Shown piece by piece: positions 2,111-34,940 of a stretch of 64,000 bases of DNA (position 1 is the stretch's first letter; the number at the start of each line of letters is the position of its first letter). The stretch lies in sequence record KX130862. One strand, 5' to 3'. A model generated the notes under the pieces. The model saw only the letters and a program-made list of their open reading frames with translations, had not been told where the DNA came from and did no database searches. The DNA comes from Shigella phage SHFML-26. Both the position numbers and the translations under genes were made by a program.

Positions 2111-2965
2111 TCACAATGAAGAAAATTCTTTAACTAAAGCCTGTAATGAAGCCTCTATTGGATATCCATTCTTAACTAACATTTTCCTAAACATCACATG
2201 TTTAGGACGATTATATGATATCCACAATTCATACAATTTATCTTTATTATCCCAATGATAGCCTTTTCGTCGAGATGCTATATGAGCTTTTCTAATCTCC
2301 GGATTTTTCCAACTAGCAGCTACTGAATTTGATATAGCTATTTTATATTCAGGTTTTGATAAAGCAGCACGAACAGCCTTTTGGTGTTTAATTTTATTTT
2401 CTTCGTTATTAAACCATTCCCTTGAAGCCATTGAAATTTTTTGTTTTGTTTTAAAATTATTTAATCTTTCTTTGTTATCTTTCCTATTTTTTGCTACTGA
2501 AAAATATTTTAATGCCCTTTCTCTAGCAGCATTTCTATTTTGCGGATTTGAATAATATTGTTGAAGCCTTTTTGATATTGTGTCACTTACATCTTGTTTT
2601 ATAAAACTATATTCAGCAGCTATTAAATCAACTTCGGCTAAAGATAAATTTTTATATGTTTTTCCTGACATCATTCTATTTAAAGCATTTAGCATTTTTC
2701 CATTTTTACCTTTTGCTAATAAGAAATGTGCTTTAAAATGATTAAAATGACTTAAATTAACTAAATTCCATGTAGATTTTAAATATTCAGGAAATATTGA
2801 TTTAGGAAGCACGTGATGTGCTTCCGTTTTACCTGGAGTTTTAACAGTTGAATTCATAGAAATAAAATTAATGTAAGACTTGGCGTCTTCTTCACTCAAC
2901 GCTAATTTTTCAACTAATTCCTTTATTAAAAATTCATCATTAATGTCAAGTTTAAAATTCTTCAC
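2111..2965 (-). CDS. HNH-family homing endonuclease (free-standing)
   Basis: 284 aa; HNH motif (EAHHVLPKS...NLVNLSHFNHFKAH); basic C-terminal region; apparent GTG start overlapping the upstream stop (GTGA). Confidence 0.75.
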   Translation of the reverse strand: MKNFKLDINDEFLIKELVEKLALSEEDAKSYINFISMNSTVKTPGKTEAHHVLPKSIFPEYLKSTWNLVNLSHFNHFKAHFLLAKGKNGKMLNALNRMMSGKTYKNLSLAEVDLIAAEYSFIKQDVSDTISKRLQQYYSNPQNRNAARERALKYFSVAKNRKDNKERLNNFKTKQKISMASREWFNNEENKIKHQKAVRAALSKPEYKIAISNSVAASWKNPEIRKAHIASRRKGYHWDNKDKLYELWISYNRPKHVMFRKMLVKNGYPIEASLQALVKEFSSL

Positions 2966-10149: not shown

Positions 10150-10620
10150 TTAATCATGTTTCCACACCCCATCGGTATTTGACCAAAGTCGCTGATTATC
10201 TGATCCTCGCCACAGCTTTTTAGTCGGAAGATTTTTCTCATACTTCCCATCAATAATAACATCAACATATTTAAGCATTTCTAGCTGTTTAATATCTTCA
10301 AACTTATATCCTGTCCACAACCAAATGCTTTTATTGGGATAAAGATTTTTAATAGTTTGAACCACAGAGTGAATCACGTCTCTGTTATCAGGATAAAGAG
10401 GGTCTCCTCCAGTTATAGTTAATCCTTCTATATAATCATTATTCAAACATTCAATCAATTGTTCTAGTGTTTCACCGGTGAATGGAATACCATTTCTAGC
10501 ATTCCATGTTGATTTATTATAACACCCTTCACATTTATGCAAACAACCTGTAACGAAAAGAACAGTTCTGCAACCAGGGCCATTCACAAAGCAGCACGGG
10601 TATATTCTGTCATAATTCAT
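10150..10620 (-). CDS. nrdG: anaerobic ribonucleotide reductase activating protein NrdG (radical SAM)
   Basis: CxxxCxxC radical-SAM motif (CLHKCEGC); starting at MNYDRIYP gives 156 aa as in T4 NrdG; track ORF starts at an upstream TTG. Confidence 0.9.
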   Translation of the reverse strand: MNYDRIYPCCFVNGPGCRTVLFVTGCLHKCEGCYNKSTWNARNGIPFTGETLEQLIECLNNDYIEGLTITGGDPLYPDNRDVIHSVVQTIKNLYPNKSIWLWTGYKFEDIKQLEMLKYVDVIIDGKYEKNLPTKKLWRGSDNQRLWSNTDGVWKHD

Positions 10621-11447
10621 AATAATATCCAATTTTTCCAAGCTTCATCAGTAGAATTACAGCGTTTTAGTATAAGATGTCTAGAAACTTTTATGGCATT
10701 TGAGCACTTTTTAATTGAATCATATTTAATACCGTCAACTGAAACGGTTTTGCTAGTTGGAGAAATTTTTCCATACATTGGATTTTTTGAACCAACTTGA
10801 AGTCCTTTTAAAGCTTTTGAAAGCTTTTGTCTAGATTCCAATGACATGGGAGAATTCTTTTTACCTTCAATAATTCGCTTGCGATGAAGTTCGCGTTCTT
10901 CTTCACTCAAAGAATTGTAATATTTTTTAACACCGTTTGATATAGATAATTTATCTTTCTCAGACCGCTCTCCAGCTAATTTACTTCTAACATCTTTTCG
11001 CTTCATAGCTATGCTTACGGCTTTATTTAAATTTGCTTGATGCTCTGGCGTACGTTTATATTTCTTTAAAGCACGTGAAATAGCTATTTTAGTTTCTTCT
11101 GTTCTCTTTTTACCTTTATTTGCTAAACTATTTTTGTGGCGATGTTCAAGTGTCTGTTCATAGGCAGTTCCACCTTTTCCACCAGGTTTAATATTATATG
11201 TATTTTCTTTTAGACAATACTCTTCAGTTACAAGTTCAGCTTCTTTATCATACATTTGCTTTTCATTATCAAAAACATATAAAATTTCTTTATAAAAATT
11301 TTTTCTACCATATTTTAATAAAGCAGCACGAATCAATGTTCCTGATCCCATATAACCGTCATTTATATTATCGGTGCTATGCGCACCGATATATTCCTTT
11401 GAATTAATTATATTTGTTATTTTATAAATTATATAATACCTATGCAT
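10617..11447 (-). CDS. GIY-YIG homing endonuclease (Seg-like)
   Basis: 276 aa; N-terminal GIY-YIG module (YYIIYKITN...EYIGAHST...GYMGSG); C-terminal NUMOD-like DNA-binding repeats; overlaps the nrdD stop and the nrdG start. Confidence 0.85.
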   Translation of the reverse strand: MHRYYIIYKITNIINSKEYIGAHSTDNINDGYMGSGTLIRAALLKYGRKNFYKEILYVFDNEKQMYDKEAELVTEEYCLKENTYNIKPGGKGGTAYEQTLEHRHKNSLANKGKKRTEETKIAISRALKKYKRTPEHQANLNKAVSIAMKRKDVRSKLAGERSEKDKLSISNGVKKYYNSLSEEERELHRKRIIEGKKNSPMSLESRQKLSKALKGLQVGSKNPMYGKISPTSKTVSVDGIKYDSIKKCSNAIKVSRHLILKRCNSTDEAWKNWILL

Positions 11448-19752: not shown

Positions 19753-20157
19753 TCAATTTTCAATTTTACTAAATACACAGAATATGATGGAAAAGACTAT
19801 ATAAGCACCGCACACAGATTGAACTAATACCATTCCAAAGAACCAAATAATATTATCAAACAGTGTCTGTTTTACGTCGAAAGGACGTAAACTTACAGTA
19901 ATATTATCACCTTTTTCTATTGAAGAATACATCTCTGGGGAAATATATTCACTAAATCTATAACCGTCTTTGAGTTCATATACAGCAATAAACGATAAAC
20001 TAGACCCCTTTCCTTGAGTTCCTGTAAGGGTATTAACTACAGTAACATCATAATCTTTATAATGCATATAATCATTAATTGCGTAATAACCATATGCAAC
20101 TACTACACATAAACAACATATCAATAAATTCAATCTTTTAATTATCAACTGTTTCAT
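19753..20157 (-). CDS. membrane protein
   Basis: 134 aa with N-terminal and C-terminal transmembrane helices. Confidence 0.55.
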   Translation of the reverse strand: MKQLIIKRLNLLICCLCVVVAYGYYAINDYMHYKDYDVTVVNTLTGTQGKGSSLSFIAVYELKDGYRFSEYISPEMYSSIEKGDNITVSLRPFDVKQTLFDNIIWFFGMVLVQSVCGAYIVFSIIFCVFSKIEN

Positions 20158-27977: not shown

Positions 27978-28165
27978 TATTCTTCTACATGTTGTTTACG
28001 ACCTTTCCTATCAATAAAGGTATATTCAACGAATGTTCCAATATAGTCTTTATCTACATCATGTGGACTATTAATTGGGCATTTAGTACGGCAAATGCGT
28101 TCCCATTGACGAATAATTTCCACTTTGTTTTTAGGATCAAACGGATGCGGGTAATGTACTTTCAT
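27953..28165 (-). CDS. hypothetical protein
   Basis: 70-aa ORF. Confidence 0.45.
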   Translation of the reverse strand: MKVHYPHPFDPKNKVEIIRQWERICRTKCPINSPHDVDKDYIGTFVEYTFIDRKGRKQHVEEYCLKVTWL

Positions 28166-28616
28166 AATCCACCACTATTAAATCAATATCAGGAGTAAAC
28201 ATGTCGATTAATTTAGAAACCTTATCCCAATCGCCGCCAGCAATACCGCAACCTATGCGTGGAATGTAAATTACTGGTTTAAACAAAAGGGTTTCTGCCT
28301 GTAGATTTAATTCTATCATGCAGTTTACTAAAGCACCATAATCAAGATTAGGACCCGGTTCGTATTGTGTATACAGGTTATAGCATATACCAAATCCCGT
28401 AGGACTATGTTTAAAAACAATAGACATATCGCCTAATTTATCACGAGAACCGTACTCGGTAGTGGTTTTATCTATTTCTAAAATTTTGGGATAGGCTCTT
28501 GCTAATTGACCTGCTACGCCAGAGCCCATTGTGTGGAAGCAATTGCACCCGTGCGCAATAATATTACCTTGAAGAAATAGGGCGACAATATCGCCCTTGA
28601 TATATTTTACAATCAT
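28137..28616 (-). CDS. macro-domain protein (TARG1/OARD1-like ADP-ribose processing fold)
   Basis: 159 aa; motifs GDIVAL...IAHGCNCFHTMGSGVAG and PRIGCGIAGGDW resemble ADP-ribose binding/hydrolysing macro domains. Confidence 0.65.
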   Translation of the reverse strand: MIVKYIKGDIVALFLQGNIIAHGCNCFHTMGSGVAGQLARAYPKILEIDKTTTEYGSRDKLGDMSIVFKHSPTGFGICYNLYTQYEPGPNLDYGALVNCMIELNLQAETLLFKPVIYIPRIGCGIAGGDWDKVSKLIDMFTPDIDLIVVDYESTLPASV

Positions 28617-28954
28617 CTAGTACTCAATCCTCGATTATAAGAATCTACTAAACGGTCAACCATTGAATGACAAGCGGCTTTATCTTTCTCCTCCGCAACT
28701 GAACATTCTAAGGTATTCCACTTTTTAGCATATCGTTTTAACAATGTATCATTTTTGTATCTGCTTGATTTATCTCTTTCTCCGTCTTTATATGCATATA
28801 TTAATTTCTGCGCAAATTCAGCTTGGCATGCTTTATTTTTCCCGCAATAATCCGCTGCAGTACGGTTTACATACTCTCTAATTTCAGTATATGATGTATC
28901 TGCTAACGCAGAAAATGAAATTAATCCTATACATAAAACCAAAATTTTAGTCAT
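28613..28954 (-). CDS. secreted or periplasmic hypothetical protein
   Basis: 113 aa; N-terminal signal peptide MTKILVLCIGLISFSALA; several cysteines. Confidence 0.55.
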   Translation of the reverse strand: MTKILVLCIGLISFSALADTSYTEIREYVNRTAADYCGKNKACQAEFAQKLIYAYKDGERDKSSRYKNDTLLKRYAKKWNTLECSVAEEKDKAACHSMVDRLVDSYNRGLSTR

Positions 28955-29309
28955 TTACTATTTCCAAAAGTTTATTATTTTTAAGGTAATTAGCCTTTTC
29001 TAGGACTTCAGAAGCATATTTAGAACCTGCTTTAACATTCCATCCCGAATTATAAGAGGATATTGCTTTTCTTATATCGCCCTTATGTATATTTAACCAA
29101 TAAGAAAGTTCAATGTACGCCCAGGAAGCTGAATTGGACCGTTTATTCAACATTCTTTTTATTTCAGCATCGGTCATATTATAACCAAGTTCCTTGACTC
29201 TCGCTCGCATAGTAGGCAAATAATTTTGGAACATTCCATAGGCATGATGCTTTGGTTTAGATTTTAAATTAACTCCGGCAGAGCTTTCTTGCCACAAAAT
29301 AGCAGCCAT
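28947..29309 (-). CDS. lytic transglycosylase-like (SLT) domain protein
   Basis: ILWQESSAG, YGMFQ and SYNSG motifs resemble SLT catalytic motifs; track ORF 28947..29321 starts at TTG, ATG at MAAILWQ overlaps the upstream stop (TAATG). Confidence 0.6.
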   Translation of the reverse strand: MAAILWQESSAGVNLKSKPKHHAYGMFQNYLPTMRARVKELGYNMTDAEIKRMLNKRSNSASWAYIELSYWLNIHKGDIRKAISSYNSGWNVKAGSKYASEVLEKANYLKNNKLLEIVND

Positions 29310-29491
29310 TATATGACCCAATCCGCTCTTATGGATGTTTTTGTGTGTTTTATATTTTCCATCCTTAGAAAATTGTTCCCGAATTGATACGCGTAACGCA
29401 TGTTATCGAGTTGGACATTACTGAAAGTATGCTCGGAGCTATGTGCCATCATTGAAATGGCCAATAGACCAGCGAGTAGTGCTTTTCTCAT
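29309..29491 (-). CDS. small protein with signal peptide
   Basis: 60 aa; MRKALLAGLLAISMMAHS signal-like N-terminus; translationally coupled to the SLT gene. Confidence 0.45.
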   Translation of the reverse strand: MRKALLAGLLAISMMAHSSEHTFSNVQLDNMRYAYQFGNNFLRMENIKHTKTSIRADWVI

Positions 29492-29498
29492 GCTTACC

Positions 29499-29960
29499 TC
29501 ATTGAGTTTTAATTACTGCTTTAGAAGCCTTTCCTGGTAAACGACGACTGTTGATAATTGCCATCCTGCATTGAAGTGACGGGTTTTTGAACTTCTCATT
29601 AGGCTTACAAACCGTAAATCCAAGCCAAAGATTTCCATCTGTGATTTCTAAACGTCCAGGACGATATTCAACCCCATCAATAAAATCCTCGTCAATGTCA
29701 GGACGCGGAGGCATACTCAGGAATTCATTAACTTCTAAAACATGGTCTTTTATTTTATGGAATAATTCAAAAACATATGTCTCATCAATCTCCCGTTGAA
29801 TTGCACGATCAAGAAGATGTTGAGAATATTTTAGATGAAACGATGAGACTCCTGCTGCTTTTGATGCCTCACGAATCTCATTGTTAATTTGACGAAACTC
29901 CGACTCAAAATGACGACGAAGCTTATTTCGACGGATAAAAACTTCTGTATTGATAGTCAT
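29499..29960 (-). CDS. regB: RegB sequence-specific endoribonuclease
   Basis: 153 aa; MTINTEVFIRRNKLRRHFESEFRQ; early promoter (GTTTAC -35, TATAAT -10) and GAGGAG SD upstream; matches T4 RegB. Confidence 0.95.
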   Translation of the reverse strand: MTINTEVFIRRNKLRRHFESEFRQINNEIREASKAAGVSSFHLKYSQHLLDRAIQREIDETYVFELFHKIKDHVLEVNEFLSMPPRPDIDEDFIDGVEYRPGRLEITDGNLWLGFTVCKPNEKFKNPSLQCRMAIINSRRLPGKASKAVIKTQ

Positions 29961-29988
29961 GTTGTTCTCCTCTTAACTGATAGAAAAA

Positions 29989-30017
29989 TTATACCACAGT
30001 CAAGAGGAAAAGTAAAC
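29989..30017 (-). promoter_or_regulatory. T4-type early promoter of regB
   Basis: Minus strand GTTTACttttcctcttgactgtggTATAAT followed by GAGGAGAA SD and the regB ATG. Confidence 0.65.
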
Positions 30018-30600: not shown

Positions 30601-30778
30601 CTAAACGAATAGGTTCATGAATGCCATATCCCTGAACAGAAATTTCTGTAGTAGGATAAATTCCATTAATATCACCCATGTTCCATGCTTCGTTAAATTG
30701 CTGTTCGCCTGAATTACTAAACCATTCGGCGAAAGCATTTAGCACATCTTCAGAACCTTCAATAATTATCTTTGCCAT
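30557..30778 (-). CDS. hypothetical acidic protein
   Basis: 73-aa ORF. Confidence 0.45.
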   Translation of the reverse strand: MAKIIIEGSEDVLNAFAEWFSNSGEQQFNEAWNMGDINGIYPTTEISVQGYGIHEPIRLVEYDLCTGEEVKYD

Positions 30779-31140
30779 TACAAACTCTCGGTAAAGGTAC
30801 GAGCGATAACATCGCGCTGCTGTTCCGGAGTCAGAGAGTTAAAGCGAACTGCATAACCGGATACACGGATGGTCAGCTGCGGATATTTTTCCGGATGCTT
30901 AACTGCATCTTCCAGAGTTTCACGACGCAGAACGTTAACGTTCAGGTGTTGACCACCTTCAATTTTAACTGTAGGCTGTTGCTCAATTTCAATTTCACGG
31001 GCATGCAAACCGTAGAAAATTTCTGGGTCTACAAAAGAGTCCTCTTTAAAGGTTTTAGAGACAATAATTCGTGCTTGAATACCATCTTCAAAATAAATAG
31101 TACCTTTATGTGTGCCTTCAAGAATTTGATATGCTTTCAT
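30778..31140 (-). CDS. autonomous glycyl-radical cofactor (GrcA/YfiD-like)
   Basis: 120 aa; C-terminal half ([61 protein letters not shown]) is essentially identical to enterobacterial GrcA, including the RVSGYAV glycyl-radical site. Confidence 0.9.
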
Positions 31141-34097: not shown

Positions 34098-34582
34098 TTT
34101 AATTTCCTGCATTCAGTGATAAAGTTATTTAAATTTTGAGTATATTTCTTTTCATCAAAAATCTTTTGTTGTCTGCGTAGCCGCCATGGCATTTCAATGA
34201 ACATACGCCATATTCCTGATAATACTGCTGCTGTAAAAATATTAACAAGTATAGTTAAAAGAACCCAATCTCCTATTCTGTCCATTGGATTTTTTATAAA
34301 AAAGTAAAATACGAACGATGATATAGGAAGACTAATGATATACCACAGAAGAACCTTCTTATCTGTGAACCAATCAGCATTCGTTAACTTAGCGCGACCG
34401 TTTTGAATACATACGAACTTATCATCTGTTACAGTAAATGGCTTAGCTGCTTGATATCCCATTCTAAACTCCCTAATCAACAAATTTTTCATATCTTCGG
34501 AACAACCATTCCAGTCAACTCTATCAACTGAAATGCCATCATCCCCATCATCTAAATCATACCAGCGAGTTTTTAAAATCAT
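34094..34582 (-). CDS. membrane protein
   Basis: 162 aa with two central transmembrane helices. Confidence 0.55.
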   Translation of the reverse strand: MILKTRWYDLDDGDDGISVDRVDWNGCSEDMKNLLIREFRMGYQAAKPFTVTDDKFVCIQNGRAKLTNADWFTDKKVLLWYIISLPISSFVFYFFIKNPMDRIGDWVLLTILVNIFTAAVLSGIWRMFIEMPWRLRRQQKIFDEKKYTQNLNNFITECRKLK

Positions 34583-34658
34583 TTAATTTTCCTACAATCA
34601 CTCACAAACTCTTCCATTGATTCTTTTTCAATATAAGACATGTAGCTATTATATTCCT

Positions 34659-34940
34659 TTAATTGTATTTTGTAATCTTTTTTCTTTGCCAATTTATTTT
34701 AAAATTATCATAATGAAAATATAATATGGTACCAAAGAATGAAAACAATGAAATAATTTTAGTATAGCGAAGTTCACTCCAAACTTCTATTATATTTACT
34801 GTGCCGTCAATGTTTAAAATAAGACAGTCAATTAACAATCCAAAAAGACTACCCGCAAGAGCTGCAGCCAACGCCACAGCAAAAATTAAAAATGACTCAG
34901 GAAGCGAATATTTGACTTTATTTAGTTTTGGCTTTTGCAT
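34659..34940 (-). CDS. small membrane protein
   Basis: 93 aa with two hydrophobic helices. Confidence 0.5.
   Translation of the reverse strand: MQKPKLNKVKYSLPESFLIFAVALAAALAGSLFGLLIDCLILNIDGTVNIIEVWSELRYTKIISLFSFFGTILYFHYDNFKINWQRKKITKYN

Follow-up and report, generated by a model that had tools for sequence, protein, structure and literature searches.

The two small open reading frames (ORFs) that lie side by side at 28947..29491 on the minus strand of Shigella phage SHFML-26 (KX130862) are pieces of the T4-family gene vs.1. The locus is a broken copy of a known gene and not a new two-gene system: vs.1 and its SLT similarity were already known, and the split is a strain-specific single-base lesion. 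We put at about 0.64 the probability that there is one vs.1 gene here carrying a genuine slippage-type loss-of-function deletion, in what would be a dispensable accessory gene of a lytic phage. The window, as the term is used below, is the whole 64,000-nt stretch of DNA that was analysed.

Two reading frames derived from one T4-family gene

The earlier note had described two minus-strand ORFs that share a TAATG overlap, and the sequence bears this out. The locus and its immediate neighbours are as follows.

28947..29491, minus strand: disrupted vs.1 locus, 545 nt as against 546 nt (181 aa) in relatives
29309..29491, minus strand: 5' fragment ORF of 60 aa, with 38 native and 22 out-of-frame residues, then TAA
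28947..29309, minus strand: 3' fragment ORF of 120 aa, native M62-D181, the SLT/GH23 core without signal peptide
29378..29380, minus strand: frameshift site, GGG here versus GGGG in relatives
29499..29960, minus strand: regB (Pfam REGB_T4, E 5.9e-69), the upstream gene, in the same predicted transcription unit
28613..28954, minus strand: vs (valyl-tRNA synthetase modifier), a 113-aa ORF downstream, named from the syntenic genes in relatives

The 60-aa ORF opens with MRKALLAGLLAISMMAHSSEHTF, its signal part being MRKALLAGLLAISMMAHS followed by SEH, and its out-of-frame part corresponds to 29312..29377. Its TAA (29311..29309) overlaps the ATG (29309..29307) of the 120-aa ORF, which opens with MAAILWQESSAG and measures 124 aa if counted from an upstream TTG at 29321. 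In this genome the signal peptide at 29438..29491 is in a different frame from the SLT core at 28947..29309.

The vs.1 locus is flanked by regB and vs, in the T4 order (regB, vs.1, vs, tk.4), and the order regB/vs.1/vs is identical in T4, DalCa, JLBYU22, Isf-Pm2, OMNI12 and PhiZZ6. The vs gene overlaps the stop of vs.1 by 8 nt, and the exact vs protein is present in 48 Tequatrovirus records. A megablast search with 28600-29960 matched 655 phage records, nearly all of them Tequatrovirus, with a top identity of 99.2%. The T4 protein Vs.1 (NP_049725.1; PHROG 600) occupies the same position between regB and vs and has the same length of 181 aa once one G is restored in the SHFML-26 gene; it differs in being encoded by one 546-nt ORF (NC_000866 61726..62271), labelled 'ORF 61.4 (AA 1-181)' in the older T4 entry X04567, whereas the ORF here is broken after codon 38 and no full-length product is encoded. 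In DalCa, JLBYU22, Isf-Pm2, OMNI12 and PhiZZ6 vs.1 is likewise annotated as one 546-nt gene each, with 'transglycosylase SLT domain-containing protein' or 'putative transglycosylase' as its name in two of the five records.

Two further genes of the neighbourhood were identified by Pfam: tk.4 (28137..28616, minus strand), which adjoins vs and encodes a Macro-domain protein (E 1.3e-7), and vs.6 (30778..31140, minus strand), a 120-aa stand-alone glycyl-radical domain (Gly_radical, E 2.5e-18) that is known from T4 and is labelled autonomous glycyl radical cofactor (GrcA-like) in relatives.

A one-base deletion private to SHFML-26

Alignment of vs.1 with its counterparts in DalCa, JLBYU22 and Isf-Pm2 gave a mean column identity of 99% and a single 1-nt gap. 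The gap falls in a GGGG run at gene positions 112-115, formed by codon 38 (GGG) and the first base of codon 39, and the same GGG/GGGG difference is seen against the four relatives OMNI12, DalCa, T4 and PhiZZ6. When one G is put back, a 181-aa protein results that is identical to DalCa Vs.1, differs from T4 Vs.1 in one residue (A72 versus G72), is 99% identical to the homologue cluster P0001 and matches PHROG 600 over residues 1-178 (E 5.6e-69). Without it the frame shifts after codon 38, and the 545 nt of vs.1 hold no uninterrupted ORF of about 171-188 codons. As written, the locus reads as a disrupted vs.1 and not as a functional member of the PHROG 600 group.

The TAATG overlap arose by chance through the frameshift and is no coupling signal, since the first stop codon met in that frame happens to overlap the native Met62 codon. 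M62 itself is an invariant internal residue of the family, and no dedicated start, in an alignment of 45 homologues. Neither the TAATG nor 29300-29325, the interval that had been proposed for inspection of the reads, contains the lesion: it sits 70 nt further upstream, and the bases to be checked are 29378..29380.

Searches at several levels show that the deletion is unique to the SHFML-26 sequence. A 71-mer spanning it matched 500 phage records, none of which (0/500) was identical and all of which fell in the 95-99% identity band; among the matches listed (60), all span 72 nt at 98.6%. A 34-mer carrying the deletion was matched exactly nowhere in IMG/VR, the JGI metagenome contigs or the contigs of GTDB genomes, and its intact version had four exact matches in IMG/VR. 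At the protein level we recovered 77 homologue clusters, down to 40% identity, all of 171-188 aa except one of 119 aa. The exceptional sequence (P0072) has the same Met start and was considered as a second split homologue; its contig carries a gap of 10 N just upstream, and we set it aside as a scaffold artefact. The exact 60-aa sequence is missing from a collection of 15 billion proteins, and the exact 120-aa product is annotated in Shigella phage SHFML-26 only (YP_009279109.1 / ANN87008.1). In every other Tequatrovirus record examined vs.1 is intact.

The earlier note had left the choice between two coupled genes and one gene split by a frameshift, to be decided by looking for a continuous ORF in related phages. 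Such an ORF is what the orthologues have, each being a single frame of 171-188 aa, and the deletion is private; the frameshift half of the proposal stands. Two coupled genes were rejected: the orthologues are single ORFs, 0/500 related records carry the deletion, and the 60-aa product occurs nowhere else.

Predicted signal peptide and fold of intact Vs.1

The following elements of the protein can be placed on the DNA.

29438..29491, minus strand: predicted Sec signal peptide, residues 1-18 (MRKALLAGLLAISMMAHS), predicted cleavage after AHS
29286..29288, minus strand: codon of the predicted catalytic Glu, E69 in WQES, invariant in 45 homologues
29226..29240, minus strand: YGMFQ, counterpart of the SLT G-L-M-Q motif; G86, F88 and Q89 invariant in 45 homologues
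29043..29057, minus strand: SYNSG, counterpart of the SLT/goose-lysozyme A-Y-N-x-G motif; Y147, N148 and G150 invariant in 45 homologues

The N-terminus has the layout of a typical Sec signal peptide, as predicted from a basic MRK n-region, a 13-residue hydrophobic core with an 11-residue Kyte-Doolittle mean of up to 2.35, and A-H-S at positions -3 to -1. This agrees with the signal-peptide start that had been ascribed to the 60-aa ORF, whose basic n-region, hydrophobic core and A-H-S are these same residues. The n-h-c layout is kept in all 45 aligned homologues, where a basic part is followed by 12-15 hydrophobic residues and a small-x-small site. In the same alignment the mature N-terminus is strongly conserved (F23, Q27, N30, A34, Y35, G38, K48 and G59), and in WQESS, W67 and E69 are invariant and S70 and S71 nearly so.

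The WQESS, YGMFQ and SYNSG motifs and the SLT likeness claimed for the 120-aa product are present, the latter above the Pfam gathering score and marginal. Against SLT (PF01464, gathering score 21.3) the 120-aa product scores 23.7 bits (E 3.8e-5), a resemblance that goes beyond chance yet is marginal by sequence alone; the intact protein scores 23.4 bits, which is marginal too. A precomputed PF01464 match is recorded for 14 of the 77 homologue clusters. Neither Vs.1 nor the 60-aa product matched any NCBIfam entry, and the latter had no Pfam match. Searches of PDB sequences returned nothing significant, whether the query was the protein alone or a profile of the 45 sequences. In an hhalign comparison with E. 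coli MltE (MG1655 sequence), which is weak (E 0.12), WQES pairs with AIES, which holds the catalytic E64, and YGMFQ with AIGLMQ; in the profile search SYNSG aligns with AYNTG of the goose-type lysozyme 3gxk.

Fold comparison was informative where these sequence-only searches were not. AlphaFold2, run on the 45-homologue alignment, produced an all-helical domain (pLDDT 87.6, pTM 0.82) in which E69 lies at the C-terminal end of a helix formed by residues 59-70. Residues 23-61, conserved in the homologues, form an integral helix and hairpin in the model, and an N-terminal helix of low pLDDT (residues 3-13) is of the kind typical of signal peptides. The model has the lysozyme-like GH23 fold, and goose-type lysozymes, which are hydrolases, match it equally well. 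On this modelling Vs.1 is best described as a divergent protein of predicted GH23/SLT fold that carries the family-1 lytic-transglycosylase signature of E-S, G-M-F-Q and Y-N-x-G and a predicted Sec signal.

The intact pre-protein of 181 aa would thus consist of a cleavable Sec signal of ~18 aa and a single GH23/SLT-fold domain of ~163 aa. The prediction is that early in infection it reaches the periplasm by export, where it cuts glycan strands in peptidoglycan with E69 as the acid catalyst; we infer both export and enzymatic activity. As for its chemistry, the modelled fold would be compatible with lytic transglycosylation (leaving 1,6-anhydro-MurNAc ends) as well as with hydrolysis. The marginal SLT similarity of vs.1 has been published before, in a passage of Nolan et al. 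(PMC1524935), by which vs.1 and this similarity belong to the T4 literature since 2003-2006. Our literature search found only that 2006 comparative-genomics note, and no experimental cleavage, export or signal processing for any Vs.1.

Expression of the disrupted gene

Signals around the locus were read from the sequence and compared with the annotation of DalCa.

29988..30016, minus strand: sigma-70-like promoter, TTTACT-17-TATAAT with TG, a consensus match only, upstream of regB
29497..29500, minus strand: GAGG Shine-Dalgarno of vs.1, read from the sequence, overlapping the regB stop codon
28579..28597, minus strand: terminator-like hairpin just past vs, within the first 40 nt of tk.4

DalCa has a promoter annotated at the place equivalent to 29988..30016 and a rho-independent terminator at the place equivalent to 28579..28597. 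The promoter, hairpin and Shine-Dalgarno suggest that regB-vs.1-vs is an early transcription unit. Upstream of the internal ATG at 29309, the adjoining 30 nt (AACATCCATAAGAGCGGATTGGGTCATATA) contain no good Shine-Dalgarno.

Initiation at the normal start in SHFML-26 would yield the signal peptide plus 20 residues of the native mature protein and 22 read out of frame, up to the stop at 29309. The catalytic core M62-D181 would lack its signal peptide, the conserved N-terminal helix and hairpin (23-61) and a proper ribosome-binding site, and would be producible only through inefficient reinitiation. With the core deprived of its signal peptide and of residues 23-61, an exported active enzyme is not expected. 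The claim that, either way, the locus adds a second peptidoglycan-active enzyme therefore went too far: as written no exported enzyme is encoded, and the published support amounts to the marginal SLT similarity (PMC1524935).

Genuine mutation or consensus error

SHFML-26 is one of the five phages of the ShigActive/ShigaShield cocktail, sequenced by Illumina MiSeq and assembled with CLC (PMC5376334). For a survey of sequence quality we collected all net non-triplet indels of the window relative to OMNI12, DalCa, T4 and PhiZZ6. All four relatives reach across approximately the initial 50 kb, and T4 extends the comparison by about 14 kb. Three coding indels were present against every relative first compared, namely the one in the middle of vs.1, one in e.3 and one in the last codons of nrdC.7. 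A generally error-prone assembly was rejected, vs.1 being the sole private mid-gene frameshift in the part compared.

The e.3 gene (34579..34940, minus strand), which encodes a predicted membrane protein of 120 aa in T4, is split here into a 93-aa ORF (34659..34940) and a 37-aa remainder by a 1-nt deletion at about 34677, where GG becomes G after a run of six A. The exact 93-aa product is annotated in Shigella phage SHFML-26 only. In the Citrobacter phage PhiZZ6 the e.3 locus has the same length and two ORFs are annotated; with the same split in PhiZZ6, the e.3 frameshift is inherited and not private. In nrdC.7 (19753..20157, minus strand) one extra T in a T run (~19757-19760), 11 nt before the stop, distinguishes the window from OMNI12, DalCa and PhiZZ6, and T4 differs by 7 nt there. 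The product has 134 aa instead of 135 aa, and the same 134-aa protein in RB51 and Ac3 marks it as a shared C-terminal variant.

Were the missing G an artefact of assembly or base calling, the phage would have GGGG and an intact 181-aa vs.1. We regard this as somewhat unlikely, though to be taken seriously: loss of a single base from a homopolymer is the typical form of such errors, the lesion is unique among 500 relatives and met in none of the contig collections, and vs.1 is otherwise intact throughout the family, with flanks here that are 99% identical to intact genes. Moreover, the retention of vs.1 in all other Tequatrovirus records examined argues for selection on the gene, so that its knockout in a phage used for production would be somewhat surprising. 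Against an artefact, no other private mid-gene frameshift is found across the roughly 50-64 kb compared, consensus indels at a 4-nt run are rare in MiSeq data, and the e.3 split common to the independent isolate PhiZZ6 indicates that real accessory-gene frameshifts occur in this lineage. On balance a genuine slippage mutation is favoured over a consensus error by about 2:1; we infer both the reality of the deletion and the loss of function.

A real deletion might also have left something that works. TAATG-type stop/start overlaps support translational coupling in T4-like phages, and the two ORFs could form a functional two-part system in which UAAUG termination-reinitiation supplies a leaderless 120-aa core that acts from the cytoplasm, for example through holin lesions as an auxiliary endolysin, the 60-aa product being a secreted peptide. 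The 120-aa fragment retains E69 and both downstream motifs, still scores as SLT and is annotated as a protein in RefSeq. However, the arrangement is found in no other genome (the other short homologue is explained by its 10 N scaffold gap), and the overlap exists only through the shifted frame. The ATG is not preceded by a good Shine-Dalgarno, the conserved residues 23-61, an integral helix and hairpin in the model, are missing from the fragment, and the 22-residue tail of the 60-aa ORF is out of frame and has no homologue. That the deletion is real and that a leaderless SLT core is both made by UAAUG reinitiation and still active seems to us highly improbable; if true, one mutation would have turned a Sec-exported early enzyme into a cytoplasmic, holin-dependent muralytic protein. 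Less credible still, to the point of being nearly negligible, is recoding, by which -1 ribosomal or transcriptional slippage between 29378 and 29312 would restore some full-length exported enzyme. Starting 10 codons before the deletion, the native frame stays open up to its end, and the out-of-frame stretch contains A-AAA sites, at which low-level -1 slippage of tRNA-Lys is conceivable. Yet no canonical X XXY YYZ heptamer occurs between 29312 and 29380, a conserved stimulatory element is missing, three G in a row are too few for transcriptional slippage to be efficient, and all relatives are single-frame, with no sign of an evolved signal. Programmed frameshifting was rejected likewise, with neither a slippery heptamer nor a shift site common to the orthologues. 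The preferred reading remains a single vs.1 gene inactivated by a slippage-type deletion.

Should that deletion be genuine, a phage of a commercial Shigella preparation is devoid of a gene that is conserved throughout Tequatrovirus and in related T4-like phages. This would argue that Vs.1 is dispensable for lytic growth, and the repaired and native alleles would make a pair for phenotyping. The entry YP_009279109.1 (120-aa 'hypothetical protein') represents only part of a gene, and its annotation should mark it as a disrupted vs.1. Besides this correction to the annotation, the analysis usefully strengthens the fold assignment of Vs.1 and points to a possible natural knockout of vs.1.

Relation to known enzymes

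By size, single-domain architecture and export signal, the closest characterized proteins are small family-1 GH23/SLT lytic transglycosylases of Gram-negative bacteria such as E. coli MltE/EmtA and EtgA, the latter associated with a secretion system, at 13-19% identity. MltE is a lipoprotein, whereas Vs.1 has a plain signal peptide without a lipobox Cys. Vs.1 further differs from MltE and EtgA in a family-specific conserved N-terminal helix and hairpin (FSNxQLDNLxYAYxFGEQF...) and in being a phage-encoded early gene product with no link to a secretion apparatus, its activity being predicted from sequence. Goose-type lysozymes and the GH23 chitinase share the fold of Vs.1 but are hydrolases and not lytic transglycosylases.

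The same window encodes two other phage proteins of the lysozyme superfamily directed at glycan strands, gp e (T4 lysozyme) and the lysozyme domain of gp5. Both belong to GH24, in contrast to the GH23 assignment of Vs.1. The gp e protein lacks a signal peptide and relies on the holin, and gp5 is part of the virion; as a predicted early protein with Sec export, Vs.1 would act with a different timing and by a different route.

Other variable regions of the window

Between nrdG and nrdD, a 276-aa ORF (10617..11447, minus strand) encodes a free-standing homing endonuclease, with a GIY-YIG-like N-terminus and with NUMOD3 and I-TevI-type motifs for DNA binding. Its exact sequence occurs only in Logan/ENA assemblies, and homing endonucleases of T6, ECO4 and other phages fall in the same 90%-identity cluster. 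The position is occupied by a different gene in T4 and OMNI12 and by none in DalCa and PhiZZ6. A 284-aa ORF between genes 46 and 46.1 (2111..2965, minus strand), with no Pfam match, is present in OMNI12 and absent from T4, DalCa and PhiZZ6; its position and patchy distribution suggest the insertion of a mobile, possibly HNH-type, endonuclease. The segment 58356..62347 has no T4 alignment at 85% identity or above; its position is that of the gene 12 / wac region, and it probably holds the usual hypervariable fibre and adhesin genes.
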